From: an uncultured Chloroflexia bacterium
Lineage (GTDB): Bacteria; Chloroflexota; Anaerolineae; Anaerolineales; Anaerolineaceae
NCBI GenBank assembly: GCA_963704755.1
Contig: OY969938.1
Location: 3,510,001-3,542,000, forward strand
DNA: 32,000 bases
Direction of reading: 5' to 3'
Shown here piece by piece: positions 17,889-26,408 of the stretch. A program made the position numbers and the translations under genes. Each line of letters starts with the position of its first letter. Positions within the stretch are counted from its first letter, which is position 1. The notes below the pieces were generated by a model, which saw nothing but the letters and a program-made list of their open reading frames with translations, was not told the origin of the DNA and made no database searches.

Positions 17889-19550
17889 TCAATGCATGAA
17901 ATCAATTACGTTTTGGGTGAAGTCGCAGGCAGAGGGACAGGAGGTGTTCTCCTTGCAAAAGTTGGCGAAGTTGATGTCTTCACCGGCATCATCGATTTTT
18001 TGCAGGCCATCTTTAATACAGCCTGACCCTACGTGATAGTTTGCGATGGCCAGGTCCCACAGGTCTTCGTAGGAGGTCACTTGGCCGGGCTCTTTGCCGG
18101 TCTGGTCGCTGATCAACTGGCCCACCTGCACCGTTTCGGCCTTGAGCACCCGCGCGAGCAGGTCGATCTCCTGGTCGCTGCCGATGGAGCGCAAGACCAG
18201 CCCGCGTAAAACGGCGCGCTGGTCGCTGGTCAGGTTGTAGTAGCCGGCTGCACAGGCGTCATCGCCGTATTCGGGCCGGCAGACGGATAGGAAGCTGCTT
18301 ACATCGGTCACCAGTAACGCGTCCACCCCATTTTCCGAAACGCAGCCCAACCCGTATTCATACGGGATGCCGTTGTCGGACCAGAACTGGCTCTCCTGGG
18401 TGATAATTCCTTTGAGGATTTTGGCCGGGATGGATTGGTCCTGGGCGGCCTGGTAAATGGGCTGATCGTATTGATTTTGCCAGGCCTGGGCGGCGTTGTA
18501 GGCCAGTTCCTCGCCGCAGGTGCTGGCCATGCCGTCGCTCAACAGCCCCTGGGCACAGCCGCTGACACTCACCTTGCCGGAATTGATCAGTTTGCCGGAG
18601 AGATAAAAGAGATGATTGTGGGTAGCCAATTGGCCGGGCGAAGTCACCGGCAGGTAAAACAATTCATCGGGATCGTCCTGGGCCGGGAAAGCATCCCACT
18701 GCAAGGAAGCGAAATCCTGGACGTAGTCCGGCGAAAGAACCTCCAGCCGGTACTGGCCGTTATTGTCCTGCCGGTAAATGTTGCGCAGGTGCAGGGTTTT
18801 GGGCTCGGTCTCATCCCCGTAGCTCGAATCGGCCCAGTATTCCAACCAGATACCCTGGTCGCCGGTCAGGGGCAGGTAAAAATCGCAGCCGTTGGTCCGC
18901 GAGCAGACCGTATCGCGCTGGCCGTCCTGGATGTGGATTTCTTCGATGCGGAAACCATCCAGCGGCTCTTTGGCCGCGAAGTGCAGGATGGGCTTTTGAT
19001 CGCACCACTGCCCGATGGTGCAGTTGCTGACCGCGAAACTCACCTGCGCTGAGGGAAGGGGGACCATTTTGTTGTAAGAGAGGGTGGCTTTGCCCATATC
19101 GACCAGGAAAACGCCGTCGCACTTCGACGAGTCACCCTTGCTGAGCAGGTCGGCGCAGGGTGGCGTGGTGACCCACTTCTGGTAAAGGGATTCGCCGCAG
19201 TAGGCCGCGAAATCCTGCTCGCCGGGAGGGTTATCGCCATCCAGGTAGATGTCACACTGGACGGATTGGTCCTTCCAGGTCTTGACTTCCCACCGGTGGA
19301 CGCTACCGCTGCTCGGCACGCTGTTCCAGCGGCTGCCGGACATGGCCTGGCCGGTTCTAACCAGGCCGGCCGAACCGGCCAGAAAAAGCAAAAGCGCAAC
19401 AACCAGACAGCGCTTCTTGCAAAAAGTCGTTCGATCAATCCCCGGTCTTCTCCGGCCGGCCGGCCGGTTTGGCCCTGGCAGCAGAGATCCGCCGGGAGGG
19501 CTGGCGGGGATCAATCCCGGCGAATACTGGCTGCGTTGGAGGGGTGCCAT
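17889..19550 (-). CDS. Membrane-anchored, Cys-rich protein with C-terminal SLT-like lytic transglycosylase domain
   Basis: 553 aa. Pro/Arg-rich N-terminus, then a TM segment (CLVVALLLFLAGSAGLV). C-terminal region: LKGIITQESQFW...YGLGCVS...LWDLAIANYHVGSG. This matches the SLT pattern (x)QES(x)F...GLMQ...AYNAG, with the catalytic Glu in QES. Confidence 0.6.
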   Translation of the reverse strand: MAPLQRSQYSPGLIPASPPGGSLLPGPNRPAGRRRPGIDRTTFCKKRCLVVALLLFLAGSAGLVRTGQAMSGSRWNSVPSSGSVHRWEVKTWKDQSVQCDIYLDGDNPPGEQDFAAYCGESLYQKWVTTPPCADLLSKGDSSKCDGVFLVDMGKATLSYNKMVPLPSAQVSFAVSNCTIGQWCDQKPILHFAAKEPLDGFRIEEIHIQDGQRDTVCSRTNGCDFYLPLTGDQGIWLEYWADSSYGDETEPKTLHLRNIYRQDNNGQYRLEVLSPDYVQDFASLQWDAFPAQDDPDELFYLPVTSPGQLATHNHLFYLSGKLINSGKVSVSGCAQGLLSDGMASTCGEELAYNAAQAWQNQYDQPIYQAAQDQSIPAKILKGIITQESQFWSDNGIPYEYGLGCVSENGVDALLVTDVSSFLSVCRPEYGDDACAAGYYNLTSDQRAVLRGLVLRSIGSDQEIDLLARVLKAETVQVGQLISDQTGKEPGQVTSYEDLWDLAIANYHVGSGCIKDGLQKIDDAGEDINFANFCKENTSCPSACDFTQNVIDFMH

Positions 19551-19565: not shown

Positions 19566-20867
19566 TCACTTGCTGTTGGAGCTCAAAGAAATGATCGGCG
19601 CCCTTTCGGCGACCGTGGACGGGAAGACAGTGACCAGGCTGCCATTAAAGACCTGCTGTAGATAGATATCGCCCTGGTTTTGCCCTTCGGCGGTGAAACC
19701 GATGGTACCCCAGGGAGGGGTATTTTCGTGATAGGCCTGCAACTGGCTGCGCAGAGTTTCGCGCTGCTTTTGCAGGTTTTGGGTGCTGAAATCCGGGTCA
19801 CTGGCCAGTTCAGTCGAGAGGATCGAAACCAGGATCTTCAGGCTCTTGTAAGCTTCGGCGCTGTAAAGGGAGGGCTGTGAGGCCGCCCCGTGGGTCTTTT
19901 GGGTAAAATCCTCGAAGTGCTGGACGAATTCAGCCCCCGCGCCGGTGTTGGCCTGGCTGATCCAGGGGGTGGCGATGATCAGGCTCTCGGCATCCGGGTT
20001 GATCGTGGCCGCGTCCTGCCACAAGAACGAACGGCTGGCAAACCCGCCGGCGCGGGCGACCGTCAGTGGGATGGTCACCTGGGCCGCTTTGAGCGCCTTG
20101 AGGATGACCTCGACTTGATCCGGCTGGTCGAAGGCCAGGTACAGCCCATCCGGCTGGATATTGGCGATCTGGTCGGCGATTTCCGAAAAATCGGTCTGGC
20201 TGGCGTCGTAAGTGAAATAGCCATCCATTACCAGGTTTTGGCCCTCGATGGCATTCACCGCGGCGACGGCTGCATCGTTGCCGAAAGTGGAATCTTCATA
20301 GAGCACGCTAACTCGTTTGCCTTCGCCCAACTGTTCCTTGATCATTGTGGCGATGGTTTGGGCGTAGGTATCCTCGTTGGGGCTCAGGCTGAAAGCCCAG
20401 TGGTTATCGGCCGGCAAGACGTGTGAGCCGCCTGCGCTGGGCAGGATCATGGGTGTGGTGAAGTAGTTGACCAGCGAAGCGGCGTGCATGCTGGCTGCTT
20501 CGCTGGTGCCGCCCAGGATAGCCAGGGCCTGGTCCGTCTCAACCAGGTCGCGCACCGTCTGCTGCACCTGGGAGGTGTCGCGTTCCTCGGTCTCGGAGCG
20601 GAAACTCAACTGCATGTTGCAGCCCTTCAGGCCTTCGTCGGCATTGGCCTCCTGGAGGGCCATGTCGTAACCGTCGCGCTGTTCCAGCGCGATTGGGTCG
20701 CTGTCGTCGCCGATCAAGACGCCAATGGTCAGGTTGGGACAGGTAAATTTGCTGGCCTGGGGCAGGAAGGGCAGGGCCGGCATACTACTGCATCCCGCGA
20801 CGAACAAGGCAAACGTCAAGAAAATGGTAAAAAGCCTGATAGTGCCTGATTTGGGATTCTTATCCAT
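19566..20867 (-). CDS. Orphan LivJ/LivK-type (Peripla_BP_6) substrate-binding lipoprotein
   Basis: The ORF is open from GTG 20912. ATG 20867 has AGGA 5 nt upstream and gives MDKNPKSGTIRLFTIFLTFALFVAGCSS (lipobox). Branched-chain amino-acid-binding-like core (LTIGVLIGDDSDP, ALAILGGTSEAAS, RVSVLYEDSTFGNDA). There is no ABC permease or ATPase nearby on this strand. Confidence 0.8.
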   Translation of the reverse strand: MDKNPKSGTIRLFTIFLTFALFVAGCSSMPALPFLPQASKFTCPNLTIGVLIGDDSDPIALEQRDGYDMALQEANADEGLKGCNMQLSFRSETEERDTSQVQQTVRDLVETDQALAILGGTSEAASMHAASLVNYFTTPMILPSAGGSHVLPADNHWAFSLSPNEDTYAQTIATMIKEQLGEGKRVSVLYEDSTFGNDAAVAAVNAIEGQNLVMDGYFTYDASQTDFSEIADQIANIQPDGLYLAFDQPDQVEVILKALKAAQVTIPLTVARAGGFASRSFLWQDAATINPDAESLIIATPWISQANTGAGAEFVQHFEDFTQKTHGAASQPSLYSAEAYKSLKILVSILSTELASDPDFSTQNLQKQRETLRSQLQAYHENTPPWGTIGFTAEGQNQGDIYLQQVFNGSLVTVFPSTVAERAPIISLSSNSK

Positions 20868-20896
20868 GAGCATCCTGGTGGAATTCAATTCGAAAG

Positions 20897-21463
20897 TTAG
20901 TTGTTTCTGCACACGTCATATTTTTGATCGCTGCCACCGTGATCGTCGTGTAAATAGGTATCGCCGGTATCCCAATTGAGCACCTGGAAATCATGAGTAG
21001 GAATCTGGTTGTACATCAGGCAAGTGCCGGAGGGACCTGGCAACACACATTTGGTACCGGATTTGTAAAGCTGCAAGCCGAATTTGACGCCATCGGCATC
21101 GTATGGACAGCCGGAATACCCCCCGGCGCTGCTGTGCGGGTCGATTTCGAAGGTGAATTTATCCGGGTTGCCGCCGTCCCAGTTCATGGCGGGGCTAAAA
21201 TCCGAATTCGAGGAATCGTAGGCGTAGGTATCATCCCAATCGTCATCCCCATCGTCGTTTTTCTCGCAACTCAACGTAAAAACGAAGTTGGACGGGACCA
21301 GCAGGTCGCTCGGGTCACCCGGCCCGGCCGCATAGCCGCTGACCTGGAATTTTTGTTGTTTGCCGTCACAGCCGAGGTTGGATACGGTAATGCCGTAAGC
21401 CGCATCGGATGGGCTTTCGATAATATTTTGGATGACGTTGATCGTGCCGCTGCTGGTGGACAT
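20897..21463 (-). CDS. Hypothetical acidic, Cys-containing protein (possibly the detached C-terminus of the giant protein)
   Basis: 188-aa ORF starting 13 nt after the giant gene stop. No signal peptide or TM. DDGDDDWDD acidic patch and 6 Cys. The same frame stays open 23 codons upstream of its ATG. Confidence 0.5.
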   Translation of the reverse strand: MSTSSGTINVIQNIIESPSDAAYGITVSNLGCDGKQQKFQVSGYAAGPGDPSDLLVPSNFVFTLSCEKNDDGDDDWDDTYAYDSSNSDFSPAMNWDGGNPDKFTFEIDPHSSAGGYSGCPYDADGVKFGLQLYKSGTKCVLPGPSGTCLMYNQIPTHDFQVLNWDTGDTYLHDDHGGSDQKYDVCRNN

Positions 21464-21476
21464 CGTCCCGCCGAAT

Positions 21477-24400
21477 TTATCCGGGTCGGAAGGCGTCAGG
21501 GTGATCGCGAATGTGGAAACGGTCGAAATCGGTCACTTTGGCTCCCGGGCAGCTAATTTTTCCTGCGCTGGAGCCATTGGTGATGGTGCAAGTGCTGCTG
21601 GCTGGGTCGACTGTAACAGTATCCCCATTGGCTTTCTTGGCGACAGTTAAGGCGCTCAAACCAAGACTGGTGTAATCGAAGACGGTAAAGTTGCTGATGT
21701 TGAAAGTTGTGGCCAGGTCGGTCTGCATGACATCGGCGGTTGAGGTCTCGATGGGGGTGTAGGCGTAAAGATATTGGTTATCGTCGGTGCAGCTTGGGCA
21801 GCCAACCGTCGCGGATACGCTCGAGCCCATTTGAATGTTGTAGTAAGACCGTAAGGTAAAAGCGGTCGTACCGGTATTGGCCACATTGTTGGCATCCCCG
21901 GCGTACAGCGGAACGATGCTCCATTTTTTGGCCGTGTTGGCGGCAACTGTGAAAGTGAACGTGGTCGCCGTCCCGTTGGTGGTCGGGCTGCCCGACTGTT
22001 GGCAGGATATTTCGCTGGTGGTGGCCGGGCACACTACCGTAGAGGTGTCGGAAGCCAGGGCCAGGGTAACCTTGTTGGGGCTGCCGGCCAGCGAGTAGCC
22101 GTTGTTCAGCGTGACTGAAAACTGCTTGGTCACGTCCTTGTTTTGGGAGGCGGCAAAATCCACCTGGGCAAGGCTGCCCCAGGTAGGAACGGCTTTCACC
22201 CTGAAGGCGGTCGAAGATATGTAACCGGAAGGGTTGAAATTGTCGCCGTCGCCGTCGTAGCGGACGCAGAAGCGCAGGTCTTTGCCGACGACGTGCGTGG
22301 TGGCGAAGGTGACCGATTGGGCATTGCCGACGGTGGGGGTATAGGTATTGAGGATGCCGCCGTCCATGCCGGTGGTGGCGATACAATTGCCGCTGCCCAG
22401 TTGGATGGTCACGGTACCGCTGGTGGGGTTGGCTCCGGTGCTGCCGCTGCGCGTGGCGGTAACGGTGATGGAATACTTCTCCCCTACCTGATACCCGTCC
22501 GTATCCGGCTGGACGGCGATCGAGGCGGTGGTACCGGCGGCCGTGACCTGGAAAGCTTTAGAAGCGGAATAGTTGGAGGCCGCGTAGGATTTGCCGTCGC
22601 CATCGTAACGATAGCACAGCACCAGGTTGTTGGAGCCGGTGACCTGGTCGTGGGTGAAGGTGATCGTTTGGGCCGTGCCCAGGTTGGCGCTGTAGGTGTT
22701 GAGCACACCGGTGGTCATGCCATCGCTGGTCGTGCATGGGCCGGTTCCTAGAATGGCCGTCACGGTACCCGAGGTGGGCAGCGTGCCGCCCGAAAGAGCC
22801 GGGTTGATGGTGAACGAGTAGGTGCCGCCGATGGGGTAGCTGTCGGATGGAGCAGCGGACAGGCTGACCGTGGGCTTGGCCTTGACCACCGTGACCGTAT
22901 AGGGCAACTGGGTGGCGTTGAGGAAGGCCCCCGAGGCAGGCGTATAGAAGAAGGTAAGCTGTTTGTCGCTGGGCAAGCTGTCGGGCGGGGTGGCTTTGGC
23001 CGTGCATTTCCAACTACTGCCGGACTGATAGCTGCATGAACAGGTGCCATCACTGCTGCCGGAGGGGAAACTACAGGCCAGTGAGCCGGCCGAAATGGCA
23101 TCCCCGGTATCCTGGCGGGTCAGATCCAGGTTAAAGGTTTGGTTAAAGCTGTAGGTGATCGAGGATGGCGGATAAGAAAGGTCCATCGCTACATTCGAAT
23201 CGACCGGCAGGTCGGAAAAGATCTGCGAGGTATCCTTGTGGATAATGTCGGTGGAGGCTACGCTGAATTTGGCGCTCAGCGACCAGTCGCCCGATTTCGG
23301 TAAAACCAGGTTGCAGGTTGCCCTGGCAGAGCGGCCGTCGCCGTTATCCGCCAGGGTGAGGTCGCTGCAGGCGACTGTGTCCCCATCGGTGTGGGTGGCC
23401 GTCAAAGTCACCTTGCCCTGGGGAACGTTGTAGATGCTGCTGGCATTTTCGTCCTGAACGGTGATGGTGTAGCTGAGCTGGCGATTGACCAGCCCCGGGA
23501 TAGGATCGCCGGTCACGGCGTCGATTGAAACTGGACTGGTGGTGTTATCAACCGGCAGGTTCAATTCGGAGGCGGTGTCGCTGTAGAAGCTGTCTCCCGA
23601 TAAAGTGATTTGCAGCTTCCAATTTCCGCCCACCTGGTCGATGGTCAGGTCGCTAAACTTGTACGCGCCGCTGTCGGCCGAGGTCAGCTTGTGGTAGCCG
23701 ATGACCGTATCGCTGCAAGGCGCATTGTAGATGGCGGTGGGATCACAAAGCCGGCGGACGCGCAGTTCACCGTCCGGCATACGGGCCACGTTGGTGCCCG
23801 ACACGGTCACGGTCAGGTTCACCTTCTGGTTGAAGCGGTAAACGGAGCTCAAGGGCAGCAGCGTGTTTTGCAGCGAAATGGTGTTGCCCAATACCACCAG
23901 CGCGGGTTTGTACGGCAGGGATTCGGCCTGGACGTAGTTGCTGTCGCCCTGGTAGGTAGCCGTGATGGTCTTGGTCCCGGGTGTCTCGAATAAAAGCCCA
24001 CAGGTGGTCTTAGGCAGCTCGATCACGCAGGTCGAAAAGCCATCGCTGACGATCACGTTCCCGGTGGGGGGCGGATCATCGGTTTCCGGCTTGGCCACAT
24101 TGACCGCGACGGTCACCGTGTCGCCCATCTCCAGCTTATCGGCCGGGTAGATGTTGGTGATGGTCAGGGTAGGCTTGATCAGGGCGGGGTTGACCGTGAT
24201 TTTCAGGTTGGAGCCGACGTTGGTACTGGTGGCGTTTTGGATCGCGGTGATTACGTATGTACCCGATTTGGCGACGCTGATGGTGCGGAATCCTTGCGCG
24301 GCCAGGCCATCGGCGATGACGTTGTCTTCGTTGGTGATTTTGATATCATCGACGATGCCGGAAACCGACCAGGACAGCTCCACATTACCCGAGCCGGTCA

Positions 24401-26408
24401 GGGTATCCGGGGCGGCGGTGAAGAAATTGATTTTGGGCGGGTCGGGTGGAGAAGCCGGCTCGAGCACGCCTACCGGCAGGATGCGGATTTCACTGGCGCC
24501 GCGGTTTTTGACCGAGAGGACGAACTCGGTGGATTCGGATGGGAAAAAGGTAAGCTGGCCCTCGTTGGGCAAGACCCCGTCGAAAGGCGAGATGGTCACC
24601 TCGCCGCCCTTGTCCATCCCGACCCCGCTCACTTTCCAGGAGACGGTCACCTGGTCACCGGTGTACACGGTGGTGTTATCGACCTCGAATTTGTCGATCA
24701 CGATAGTGGGGGTGCCGGCCTGGATAAAGATGCTCTTTACGGTGGATCCCAGGGCGTTGGTGCCCACCAGTGAAATGAGGGTGTCTTTTTCGATGGTGAT
24801 GCTGCGCTCGCCGTTGAAATCCTTCTTGTCGTCGAAGACCTCGGTCACCCCATTGATCGTCAGGGAGACCTCGGTGGCGTTATCTACCGACCAGCGCAGG
24901 GTGAGGGTATCGCCGACCAGGACGTTGTCGCTCTGGCTGACGTTGAAGGTCTTGATGACCGGCTCGTTGGGCACGGCCAGGATCGAAAAGGAGCGCACCA
25001 GCGGATCCAGCCCGAGCATATTCCACAGCCAGGTGGTGGCGTTGAAGACGTAGGAATTTACCGTGGCGGATGGGTAGACATCGAGGGTCCCCTGGGTGTC
25101 GATCGGGTTGGGATCATCGACGCCGGTGAGTTTCAGGTTGCGGGTGAAAAAAGCCGTCTTCCAGCGCAGGGTGGTCGATTCGTTTTCGCCGATGATGGTC
25201 CGGTCGGCCTGGAAGTAGTCGATGCGGGGGGTGAAGAGGATGAAAATGGCCGCGACGGTACAGACCAGGGTGATCAAAAGACCCAGCCAGCCGATCAGCG
25301 GCCGGCCGATGGCCGTGCCGATGGAAGAGAGCACCAGGGCATCGTTCTGCTGCTGGCTGACGGCTACCCGGTAGGGATACTGGCGCGAGTGCAGGCTGAC
25401 CAGGCTGCGCTTGTTAGGCGTGATGTGAATGGGCACTTCCTGCGTTTCGCCGGCCGGCAGCGGGAATTGCAGGCTGGCCACGTTCTTGACGCTCTCCGGG
25501 TCGAAGAGCTGGAAACGGCACTCGTTTTCCTCGTCCTGGGCGTTGAGGTTGAAATCGGCGCTGCTGTTGCCGCGGTTGATCAGCTTCATTTTTACTTCGC
25601 CGAAGCGCTGCCGCCAGGCGATGCTCTTGCGGCGCGGGGTCACTTCGTCGATGGAAAACTCGTAATAGGGGTTGATCTCCAGGTTGGCCGCCACCACAGT
25701 CTGTTTTCCGGGGTGGTTGAGCGAGGTCACCACAAAGCGCAGTGGGTAAGCGCCGGTGTGGCTGGAGGGTTTGCGTGGCGGGGTGATCGAAATTTTTACT
25801 TCGGCCTGGCCGCCTTCGAAAAGGTTGACGTTCAGCGGCGCGACGATGACCCAATCCTCGGGCACGCCTTCGACACGCACATTGAAGGTGGACACGATCG
25901 GGCTGCCGTTGGTTACTTTGAGGGAATAATAGGCAGTCTGTTCGACGTTGATGGGCGTGGGGGTGTCTTCCAGCAAGGCGGCCAGGATGACTTCGTTGGT
26001 CGGCGCGGCTGCTTCCGAGGCATCCACGTTGGAGACTTTTTCGGCCGGTTTCTGGTAGCCGGACACGCTGACCCCGGTTTGCAACTGCAGATCGGTGACC
26101 GACAGGTGCGGCGGGGTGCCGTCATCCGCGCCGGCCAGGCTCAGACGGTAATTGCCGACGTTGATTCCATCGCTTGCGGAAAGAAGGTACTCCTGGGAAC
26201 CGCGCAGCCGGACGCCATTGACCCATATCTCGGCATCCTGGCTTAAGGGCAGCAGGCGGTAAGGCACCTCGTGGTAATCCAGCATCATATGATAGGGTAA
26301 GATTTGCTCCCCACCCAGGATGATGTCGTTATCCGGGCTGCTGCCGATGTTGGTAAAACCCTTGGGGGATAAGGTTAAACTTTGATCCGGATTTTCAGAA
26401 ATTCCCAT
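21477..26408 (-). CDS. Giant single-pass membrane protein: N-terminal FHA-like domain, two beta-sandwich domains, TM helix, about 1250-aa extracytoplasmic array of Ig-like repeats
   Basis: 1643 aa. GGAAGGA lies 5 nt before the ATG. FHA-like region at aa 15-90 (IGSSPDNDIILGGEQILPYHMMLDY...IWVNGVRL). TM is LIGWLGLLITLVCTVAAIFILF (aa 371-392, nt 25233-25298). Four repeats carry an L(R/S)W signature. About eight Big_3_5-like repeats follow (ATYQGDSNYVQAES, YRYDGDGKSYAAS, VRYDGDGDNFNPS, LYAGDANNVANT). Confidence 0.85.
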   Translation of the reverse strand: MGISENPDQSLTLSPKGFTNIGSSPDNDIILGGEQILPYHMMLDYHEVPYRLLPLSQDAEIWVNGVRLRGSQEYLLSASDGINVGNYRLSLAGADDGTPPHLSVTDLQLQTGVSVSGYQKPAEKVSNVDASEAAAPTNEVILAALLEDTPTPINVEQTAYYSLKVTNGSPIVSTFNVRVEGVPEDWVIVAPLNVNLFEGGQAEVKISITPPRKPSSHTGAYPLRFVVTSLNHPGKQTVVAANLEINPYYEFSIDEVTPRRKSIAWRQRFGEVKMKLINRGNSSADFNLNAQDEENECRFQLFDPESVKNVASLQFPLPAGETQEVPIHITPNKRSLVSLHSRQYPYRVAVSQQQNDALVLSSIGTAIGRPLIGWLGLLITLVCTVAAIFILFTPRIDYFQADRTIIGENESTTLRWKTAFFTRNLKLTGVDDPNPIDTQGTLDVYPSATVNSYVFNATTWLWNMLGLDPLVRSFSILAVPNEPVIKTFNVSQSDNVLVGDTLTLRWSVDNATEVSLTINGVTEVFDDKKDFNGERSITIEKDTLISLVGTNALGSTVKSIFIQAGTPTIVIDKFEVDNTTVYTGDQVTVSWKVSGVGMDKGGEVTISPFDGVLPNEGQLTFFPSESTEFVLSVKNRGASEIRILPVGVLEPASPPDPPKINFFTAAPDTLTGSGNVELSWSVSGIVDDIKITNEDNVIADGLAAQGFRTISVAKSGTYVITAIQNATSTNVGSNLKITVNPALIKPTLTITNIYPADKLEMGDTVTVAVNVAKPETDDPPPTGNVIVSDGFSTCVIELPKTTCGLLFETPGTKTITATYQGDSNYVQAESLPYKPALVVLGNTISLQNTLLPLSSVYRFNQKVNLTVTVSGTNVARMPDGELRVRRLCDPTAIYNAPCSDTVIGYHKLTSADSGAYKFSDLTIDQVGGNWKLQITLSGDSFYSDTASELNLPVDNTTSPVSIDAVTGDPIPGLVNRQLSYTITVQDENASSIYNVPQGKVTLTATHTDGDTVACSDLTLADNGDGRSARATCNLVLPKSGDWSLSAKFSVASTDIIHKDTSQIFSDLPVDSNVAMDLSYPPSSITYSFNQTFNLDLTRQDTGDAISAGSLACSFPSGSSDGTCSCSYQSGSSWKCTAKATPPDSLPSDKQLTFFYTPASGAFLNATQLPYTVTVVKAKPTVSLSAAPSDSYPIGGTYSFTINPALSGGTLPTSGTVTAILGTGPCTTSDGMTTGVLNTYSANLGTAQTITFTHDQVTGSNNLVLCYRYDGDGKSYAASNYSASKAFQVTAAGTTASIAVQPDTDGYQVGEKYSITVTATRSGSTGANPTSGTVTIQLGSGNCIATTGMDGGILNTYTPTVGNAQSVTFATTHVVGKDLRFCVRYDGDGDNFNPSGYISSTAFRVKAVPTWGSLAQVDFAASQNKDVTKQFSVTLNNGYSLAGSPNKVTLALASDTSTVVCPATTSEISCQQSGSPTTNGTATTFTFTVAANTAKKWSIVPLYAGDANNVANTGTTAFTLRSYYNIQMGSSVSATVGCPSCTDDNQYLYAYTPIETSTADVMQTDLATTFNISNFTVFDYTSLGLSALTVAKKANGDTVTVDPASSTCTITNGSSAGKISCPGAKVTDFDRFHIRDHPDAFRPG

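Follow-up and report, generated by a model that had tools for sequence, protein, structure and literature searches.

A bitopic FHA-Ig protein as a putative membrane accessory of contractile injection systems in Anaerolineae

The window analysed here, a stretch of 32,000 nt from an uncultured Chloroflexia bacterium, contains a gene for a bitopic protein that joins a cytoplasmic FHA domain to a long array of immunoglobulin-like (Ig) domains; it is referred to below as the FHA-Ig protein, and coordinates and strands are given in window numbering. Its gene belonged to a recurrent cassette, together with genes for a soluble paralogue (FHA2), for a protein with a transmembrane (TM) segment at each end (X) and for a periplasmic-binding-type lipoprotein, and this cassette was linked in two different gene orders to genes of a contractile injection system (CIS). 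The FHA-Ig protein is probably a dedicated accessory membrane protein of the CIS. A more specific proposal, that it is the membrane subunit of an Anaerolineae accessory cassette (FHA2, X, FHA-Ig protein and lipoprotein) and provides a phospho-independent platform on which the CIS is docked or triggered, was judged to have about an even chance of being correct.

It is an open question how CIS without tail fibres, and without the membrane complex of a type VI secretion system (T6SS), meet the membrane; CisA gave an answer in 2025, for Streptomyces only. For Chloroflexota, a 2026 study of their CIS states that the mechanism may be a different one, since close cisA homologues are lacking there (PMC12998442). 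The cassette is a concrete candidate in a sister lineage, and is tied to CIS in both gene orders. Were the proposal true, this would be the third machine, after the type III secretion system (T3SS; YscD/PrgH) and the type VII secretion system (T7SS; EssC), to re-use a phospho-blind FHA domain as a scaffold on the membrane side. What appears to be new is a CIS membrane accessory assembled from other parts than the known ones. The ectodomain, variable or split as it is, points to a surface that faces the target and could determine specificity.

Linkage of the cassette to CIS genes

The locus comparison covered 37 fetched homologous loci, cited by number (L001, L005 and so forth). Along the minus strand of the window, the gene order was Cis11, Cis12, a DUF4159 protein, FHA2, X (which is split in this sequence), the FHA-Ig protein, a small protein named p188, a Peripla_BP_6 lipoprotein and an exported protein of 553 aa; the plus-strand genes to the left of this block were unrelated housekeeping genes. 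A preliminary description of the gene had placed it inside a CIS locus; the window itself contained only Cis11 and Cis12, at its edge, and the full set, with tube-LysM, VgrG, PAAR and gp25 genes further upstream, was present in orthologous loci. The Cis11 frame was still open at nt 31999 and its orthologue in L007 comprised 697 aa; the rest of the CIS operon therefore lies outside the window. Behind Cis12, where a fibre would be expected, the Cis13-like gene carries a DUF4159 domain, and a gene for a conventional tail fibre was not seen in the downstream sequence.

Two arrangements were distinguished. The order in type A was tube-LysM, VgrG, PAAR, gp25, Cis11, Cis12, the DUF4159 protein, an optional methyltransferase, the cassette and, again optionally, a protein resembling SLT (lytic transglycosylase) domains; this arrangement was found in the window, L005-L008, L010, L014, L019-L023, L025, L036 and L037. 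In type B, the cassette came first in the operon and was followed by a CDC48-like (Cis15-like) ATPase with WHD and AAA domains and by an eCIS_core protein, after which L032 continued with Pvc16_N, sheath, two tube proteins and DUF6760. Type B loci that displayed more than the ATPase were L011, L015, L018 and L032. The constant core across loci consisted of FHA2, X and the FHA-Ig protein, with the periplasmic-binding-type lipoprotein after the FHA-Ig gene in most of them; FHA2 preceded the FHA-Ig gene in every locus with upstream sequence, and X did so wherever the flank was long enough.

A CIS gene adjoined the cassette in 20 of the 21 loci with usable flanks, and structural CIS genes, or genes specific to extracellular CIS (eCIS), did so in 17. 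The preliminary description had named homologues lying mostly in loci without CIS genes as the finding that would mark the protein as a generic surface adhesin; when this was checked, the count of 20 among 21 informative loci showed the opposite. Protein identities as low as 28-35% did not break the linkage. Nor did a shift of the cassette from a place 3' of the baseplate genes in type A to one 5' of the ATPase/sheath operon in type B. Because the association persisted at such identities and across this rearrangement, it was attributed to function rather than to inertia.

Several points weigh against the role proposed for the cassette, for which all of the evidence is comparative. In L030, L031 and L033, the Cis15-like ATPase was the only CIS gene seen beside the cassette; L030 and L031 went on with unrelated genes after it and displayed no structural CIS gene in the downstream flank that was read, and the flank of L033 stopped just past it. 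No CIS gene was seen in L001, where the contig ends 3.5 kb upstream. All loci came from one phylum, so the synteny could be partly inherited rather than selected. The X gene of the window is frameshifted, and the cassette may accordingly be defective here, or else the frameshift is an assembly error. Lastly, the CIS particles of Roseiflexus are free in the cytoplasm and unanchored (PMC12998442). The restriction to a single phylum, and the lack of a CIS gene in the available sequence of L001, would favour a generic envelope protein that lies near CIS genes by shared ancestry and has no functional link with them; this was considered very improbable, since the linkage survived both to 28-35% identity and through the transfer of the cassette from behind the baseplate genes to the front of the ATPase/sheath operon.

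Architecture of the FHA-Ig protein and loss of the phosphothreonine pocket

The gene is an intact open reading frame (ORF) of 1643 codons with an ATG start (Table 1). Its length and limits had been given correctly in the preliminary description, where its location on the minus strand went unmentioned; the plus-strand translation of 21477-26408 was broken by many stops. Two AlphaFold2 (AF2) models were obtained, the first covering aa 1-400 and based on 47 family sequences (mean predicted local distance difference test score, pLDDT, 90.8), and the second of aa 393-900 (pLDDT 90.4). Together with hydropathy and profile matches, they resolved the N-terminal part into an FHA domain, a disordered linker that differs in length between homologues, two β-sandwiches and one TM helix. 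The sandwich pair, expected beforehand at aa ~150-345, and the single TM helix, expected at aa 371-392, were thus both recovered with slightly adjusted limits. The first sandwich matched Pfam FixG_C, an Ig-like family, over aa 161-237 (28.4 bits against a cut-off of 25.6), and the pair resembled ASH/MSP/FnIII sandwiches in fold. The TM helix coincided with the sole strong hydropathy peak of the protein (Kyte-Doolittle value 2.64). A Foldseek search with the first model retrieved the ASH domains of hydin and CEP192, RbmA and transglutaminase β-barrels; tandem Ig/ASH sandwiches dominated this list, from which FHA structures could not be ranked.

Membership of the FHA superfamily was established by other means. 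Pfam FHA (PF00498) matched aa 20-85 with 33.3 bits (cut-off 20.7), while Yop-YscD_cpl reached 31.5 bits, slightly below its cut-off of 33.2. When compared with the Protein Data Bank (PDB), the family profile matched EmbR (E = 5e-5) and GarA in their FHA domains; a PDB search with the single sequence gave chance matches to spike proteins only (E ~0.1). The AF2 model showed β-strands throughout aa 9-106, arranged as a β-sandwich (pLDDT 92-96). The FHA fold previously read from the sequence at aa 15-90 is therefore upheld by Pfam, by the EmbR and GarA profile matches and by the model.

Its degeneracy was likewise upheld, both by alignment to EmbR and GarA and by residue counts in 121 family members. 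In the β3-β4 loop, the canonical GR is replaced by GS (Ser23 for Arg), and in the β4-β5 loop, S-x-x-H is replaced by P-Y-H (Pro38 for Ser), as the preliminary description had stated. Across the family, the position equivalent to the Ser of the phosphothreonine pocket was occupied by P, L or A in 106/121 members and by S in only 4/121; the Arg-equivalent position held R in 58/121, S in 37/121 and Q in 12/121. The pocket His was retained in 103/121, and the conserved Asn of the β6-β7 loop was absent. The FHA-Ig protein thus lacks the Arg, Ser and Asn that characterize canonical phosphothreonine-binding FHA domains. Furthermore, the Hanks-kinase motif HRDxKxxN did not occur in 34 loci totalling 518 kb. 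Because the pocket Ser is missing in 117/121 members, and because the loci contain no kinase motif, the domain was regarded as phospho-independent; judging from these residues, it keeps its fold and is very unlikely to read phosphothreonine. A phosphorylation-controlled FHA switch was rejected on the same two grounds, the missing pocket residues and the lack of kinases in the loci.

These observations bear on the possibility that the cassette controls the CIS as an envelope sensor, without docking it. The lipoprotein or the Ig stalk would then sense a cue, which the FHA-Ig protein would relay and FHA2 and X would pass on, for instance through the Cis15-like ATPase. In keeping with this, the periplasmic-binding lipoprotein is conserved beside the FHA-Ig gene, the WHD+AAA ATPase directly follows the cassette in type B, including loci that continue without structural genes, and the threonine-phosphorylation pathway of the T6SS (Fha1, TagH) is a textbook precedent for control through FHA proteins. 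However, the Ser that binds phosphothreonine is missing in 97% of members, there is no kinase motif in the loci examined and no recognisable output domain was found, so that a pure sensor is unlikely; sensing and docking are in any case compatible with each other.

FHA2, the gene preceding X, provided a second version of the same fold. It encodes a soluble protein with an FHA-like domain, a β-sandwich and a Pro/Glu-rich tail. The window copy had no Pfam match of its own; among its orthologues, Yop-YscD_cpl was matched in 9/13 and FHA in 5/13. Alignment of the FHA2 family with the N-terminal family of the FHA-Ig protein by hhalign gave a probability of 99.2% (E = 1.2e-19), and on this sequence comparison FHA2 is a paralogue of the FHA domain and first sandwich of the FHA-Ig protein. 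The tail that follows these domains in its orthologues is disordered, rich in Pro and Glu and 50-400 aa long, and the C-terminus carries a short conserved motif, V-x-V-[KR]…[DE]-F-W-[DE]-E.

Beyond the membrane, the ectodomain began with four Ig-like domains marked by an L(R/S)W motif. The preliminary description had counted four such repeats of ~85 aa, and exactly four were retrieved by jackhmmer (aa 394-466, 483-566, 570-650 and 658-740, each with E≤2.5e-12); each formed a separate β-sandwich in the second model (pLDDT about 90-97), and the tryptophans W416, W506, W591 and W680 were invariant in the family alignment. Of the 'about eight' Big_3_5-like domains that had been proposed to follow, six were confirmed (aa 745-836, 843-952, 957-1063, 1070-1173, 1177-1286 and 1292-1400; E≤2e-5), while a seventh at aa 1415-1518 was only marginal and the final ~120 aa matched no domain. 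Pfam Big_3_5 (PF16640) scored 35.2 bits, just below its cut-off of 35.5, in two stretches. The last two confirmed domains (22209-22880, aa 1177-1400) are, by self-comparison, a recent tandem duplication, as aa 1206-1298 and 1323-1414 were 48% identical in a self-BLAST. The modelled ectodomain was all-β, its only helices being three of 4-5 residues, and Foldseek matched it to Ig/FnIII/macroglobulin arrays.

The orientation of the protein in the membrane was deduced from its composition. FHA domains are cytoplasmic modules. The protein has no N-terminal signal sequence, and cysteines were distributed very unequally, with one in aa 1-370 and 20, mostly in close pairs, past the TM helix, where the ectodomain is also rich in Thr and Ser. 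The predicted topology is therefore N-terminus inside, in the cytoplasm, and C-terminus outside, because there is no signal sequence, the FHA domain lies on the N-terminal side, and both the paired cysteines and the Thr/Ser-rich part lie beyond the helix. The TM helix and the large cytoplasmic part also led to rejection of the protein as a tail fibre of a released particle.

A word-indexed search with aa 1-400 gave 0 matches and a profile search 5, and the family emerged from an exhaustive phmmer search with aa 1-700, in which 3330 proteins matched with E≤1e-3 and, among cluster representatives, at least 232 with E≤1e-30. The ~130 best homologues aligned from aa 15 to ~700, while their total lengths ranged from ~800 to 4100 aa. 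By this alignment, the conserved unit is the FHA domain, the two sandwiches, the TM helix and the four membrane-proximal Ig domains, and the remainder is variable. When the same relatives were compared, the C-terminal half was less conserved than the N-terminal 700 aa; L005 shared 42% identity in the former and 54% in the latter, and L014 26% and 40%, respectively. In a short-form subfamily, the FHA-Ig homologue measured ~1000 aa and separate giant proteins were encoded directly after it; some had lengths of 1920, 2523 and 2843 aa or more, and others, of 1439 and 1567 aa, were of the RCC1/FG-GAP/PKD kind. From these sequences, it appears that the variable ectodomain was separated off and became a gene of its own.

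This variability invites a reading of the FHA-Ig protein as part of a surface fibre or adhesin system that co-operates with the CIS; it would be the membrane base of Ig/PKD/FG-GAP filaments that grip neighbours or prey, and would make no direct contact with the machine. Grappling hooks act alongside the T6SS of Aureispira. The highly variable distal ectodomain, and its replacement in the short forms by neighbouring giant RCC1/FG-GAP/PKD proteins, would suit such a role, as would Foldseek matches to fragments of the grappling-hook protein GhpA, though these were generic Ig matches. Against this, an adhesin leaves unexplained the conserved, folded cytoplasmic part of 370 aa, the soluble cytoplasmic paralogue FHA2 and the location of the gene right behind the baseplate genes, and it was thought distinctly unlikely.

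A single protein found no homologues in the collection of species-representative genomes and an alignment of 17 sequences was too diverse; the search was therefore made with a 13-sequence alignment of closer relatives. All 14 of the 14 matches were metagenome-assembled genomes (MAGs) of Chloroflexota, most of them named Anaerolinea, Anaerolineaceae, Anaerolineales or Ornatilinea, and one named match in the protein collection came from a Thermoflexales bacterium MAG. Homologues were listed under the names 'hypothetical protein', 'FHA domain-containing protein' and 'VCBS repeat-containing protein', and NCBIfam held no model for the family.

Proposed mode of action and comparison with known systems

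Because the CIS linkage is not a chance association, being found in 20 of 21 loci and in two gene orders, the scaffold or anchor suggested in the preliminary description is the best reading of the FHA-Ig protein; its architecture, its family, its paralogy with FHA2 and the CIS-linked cassette are shown, whereas its topology, its contact with the baseplate and a part in signalling are inferred. The FHA domain without a phosphothreonine pocket, together with the two Ig-like sandwiches, would present a phosphorylation-independent docking surface, and the corresponding domains of FHA2 would offer another. FHA2, X and the FHA-Ig protein would then recruit the baseplate (Cis11, Cis12 and the DUF4159 protein, which resembles Cis13) to the cytoplasmic membrane or hold it there. 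The four conserved membrane-proximal Ig domains would form the base of a stalk, and the six to eight further, fast-diverging Ig domains the stalk itself, estimated at ~40-50 nm if fully extended. Chloroflexota are generally regarded as single-membraned. The stalk could cross the wall to the surface and there, with the lipoprotein, meet an external ligand, surface or cell; either the lipoprotein or the tip of the stalk might supply the external input. In this manner the cassette could determine the place, and perhaps also the time, of firing. Firing may be directed outwards, as in a T6SS, or inwards, as in the cell death of Streptomyces, and the sequence does not decide between the two.

A more far-reaching version was entertained, in which the cassette and the SLT-like protein, with giant PKD/FG-GAP/RCC1 fibres in some lineages, make up the envelope complex of a cell-anchored Anaerolineae CIS that has so far gone unrecognised, as a functional equivalent of the membrane complex of the T6SS that consists of unrelated components. 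The FHA/Ig units would dock the baseplate, the stalk or fibres would catch a target cell, a transglycosylase would open the wall and the machine would fire outwards on contact. This extension is speculative and was held to be somewhat unlikely.

The closest functional precedent, judged by analogy of architecture and gene position, is CisA of Streptomyces rather than YscD. CisA (SCO4242) of Streptomyces coelicolor is bitopic, with its N-terminus in the cytoplasm; it is required for contraction or firing of the CIS and for its function, and is predicted to contact Cis11 (PMC12237407). Its outer domain resembles periplasmic substrate-binding proteins, and cisA is the Streptomyces gene in the position after Cis12 (PMC12237407). 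The FHA-Ig protein would share the bitopic topology with the N-terminus inside; both systems concern CIS without conventional fibres and include a fold of the periplasmic-binding type; and the FHA-Ig gene likewise lies beside the baseplate genes of a fibre-less CIS in type A, that is, in the window and 14 other loci. The two differ in that the cytoplasmic part of CisA is largely unstructured, whereas that of the FHA-Ig protein is a folded FHA domain with two sandwiches. Moreover, the outer part of CisA is itself the binding-protein-like domain, while the FHA-Ig protein carries an Ig array of 1250 aa, the binding protein being encoded apart, as a lipoprotein; for FHA2 and X, no counterpart has been described in the CisA system. 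Gaisin et al. report that Roseiflexus, another member of the Chloroflexota, has no close cisA homologues, and according to this 2026 study the mechanism may differ there (PMC12998442). By this analogy, the cassette is plausibly a much enlarged counterpart of CisA in Anaerolineae.

The preliminary description had likened the protein to the inner-ring proteins of the T3SS (YscD/EscD/PrgH class), and this held for the general layout, i.e., an N-terminal cytoplasmic FHA fold that does not bind phosphothreonine, followed by one TM segment and a large extracytoplasmic part. It did not extend to membership of the class. The inner-ring proteins possess αββαβ ring-building motifs, whereas the ectodomain here is all-β and Ig-like; there are two extra cytoplasmic sandwiches; and no T3SS families were found in Pfam scans of the neighbours, the gene standing instead beside CIS and cassette genes. 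Membership was rejected on the grounds of the all-β model of aa 393-900, its Foldseek matches to Ig arrays and the lack of T3SS genes among the neighbours scanned.

A resemblance to TagH of the T6SS, also proposed beforehand, stood only so far as an FHA domain within a membrane protein. TagH is a membrane-associated FHA protein of the T6SS. TagH and Fha1 share with the FHA-Ig protein their encoding in a contractile-machine locus, but no kinase or phosphatase of the PpkA/PppA type was seen at the loci studied here, and the phosphothreonine pocket has been lost. Pfam annotation of the window, L007, L015, L030-L033, L036 and L037 revealed none of the TssJ, TssL and TssM families, nor did regions specific to TagH match the FHA-Ig protein in Pfam or NCBIfam. 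Membership of the TagH/Fha1 group was consequently rejected, there being no T6SS membrane-complex genes in the loci annotated, no Hanks kinase motif in the 518 kb and no intact pocket. EssC (YukB), a membrane component of the T7SSb in single-membrane bacteria, uses N-terminal, non-canonical FHA domains for protein contacts; it differs in being an ATPase of the FtsK/SpoIIIE type, which has two TM helices and lacks an Ig ectodomain. No open-access paper was found that links FHA proteins, DUF4159 or the FHA2-X-FHA-Ig cassette to CIS outside the T6SS.

Coordinates of features and neighbouring genes

Table 1. Features of the FHA-Ig gene and its neighbourhood; positions are those of the window, except in the last row, where they are those of the loci named.
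Feature	Position	Strand	Evidence
FHA-Ig gene, 1643-aa bitopic protein	21477..26408 (including stop codon)	minus	ORF list, translation, Pfam, family by exhaustive phmmer
Degenerate FHA domain, aa 9-106	26091..26384	minus	Pfam FHA, PDB profile matches, AF2, family residue counts
Disordered linker, aa 107-140	25989..26090	minus	AF2 pLDDT 45-69; gapped in family alignment
Two cytoplasmic β-sandwiches, aa 141-245 and 251-368	25305..25988	minus	AF2 pLDDT >95; Pfam; Foldseek
Single TM helix, aa 371-393	25230..25298	minus	Hydropathy; AF2 helix aa 374-392
Four conserved Ig-like L(R/S)W domains next to the membrane, aa 394-740	24189..25229	minus	jackhmmer; AF2; invariant Trp
Six Ig domains of Big_3_5-like type, cysteines paired, aa 745-1400	22209..24176	minus	jackhmmer, Pfam, self-BLAST, Cys positions
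Variable C-terminal tip, aa 1401-1643	21480..22208	minus	One marginal Ig-like match; jackhmmer E 0.32 and 9.5
Cis11 (Baseplate_J), baseplate wedge protein, runs off window end	30752..32000	minus	Pfam 1.1e-14
Cis12 (Tail_P2_I), baseplate wedge protein	29781..31031	minus	Pfam 7.7e-12; NCBIfam tail_TIGR02242 above cut-off
Cis13-like/DUF4159 protein, directly after Cis12	28682..29800	minus	Pfam DUF4159 2.4e-10
FHA2, soluble paralogue, 372 aa	27603..28721	minus	
X, ~345-aa protein, TM segment at each end	26597..27596	minus	tblastn against orthologues, frame translations
p188, small Cys-containing 188-aa protein	20897..21463	minus	tblastn matches in L005 and L006 only
Periplasmic-binding lipoprotein (Peripla_BP_6, lipobox FVAGC)	19566..20912	minus	Pfam 2.9e-34; after FHA-Ig gene in most loci
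Exported Cys-rich 553-aa protein, weak SLT signature, last gene of type A block	17889..19550	minus	
Giant-protein stretches after short-form homologues	L037 12936-21983; L036 13091-21619; L034 3720-9479; L035 3686-11254		

The annotated ATG of FHA2 is probably 44 codons too far upstream, the true start being Met45 at nt 28589. The DUF4159 gene next to it encodes a protein of two parts, with ~100 aa resembling Cis13 at the N-terminus and the DUF4159 domain at the C-terminus, and this combination was kept in all type A loci. NCBIfam CIS13_fam matched aa 21-119 with E = 1.7e-12, a score far below the equivalog cut-off; on sequence grounds, the protein may be a fibre-less variant of Cis13.

The X gene of the window consisted of an ORF of 239 aa and an overlapping ORF of 107 aa in another frame, as a result of a frameshift, while relatives had a single ORF of ~345 aa. 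The frameshift, near 26900-26960, is either real, in which case X is a pseudogene here, or an assembly error. X was fused behind a VWA and a Big_7 domain in L001 (1331-3502) and L037 (7562-9949).

Of the genes downstream of the FHA-Ig gene, p188 had no Pfam or NCBIfam match and was conserved in none but the closest relatives, L005 and L006. Orthologues of the 553-aa protein were present in L005, L006, L007, L014, L021 and L022; weak, sub-threshold SLT matches were obtained in 3/7 members of this family (best E = 0.001), and a PDB profile search with the protein gave no match. Its identity as a transglycosylase is tentative, being based on these matches, and would fit a role in wall remodelling. 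The 553-aa protein also contains a 'QESQFW' segment, and many of its Cys and Trp residues are invariant.

Two further observations concerned the loci of homologues. The short-form subfamily contained a methyltransferase (MethyTransf_Reg and WHD_PKMT) between the DUF4159 gene and FHA2 (L036 6455-8044, L037 3939-5549). In L015 (2124-5021), a defence-like protein of 965 aa with TIR_2 and WD40 domains was encoded upstream of the type B cassette, to which it is probably unrelated.

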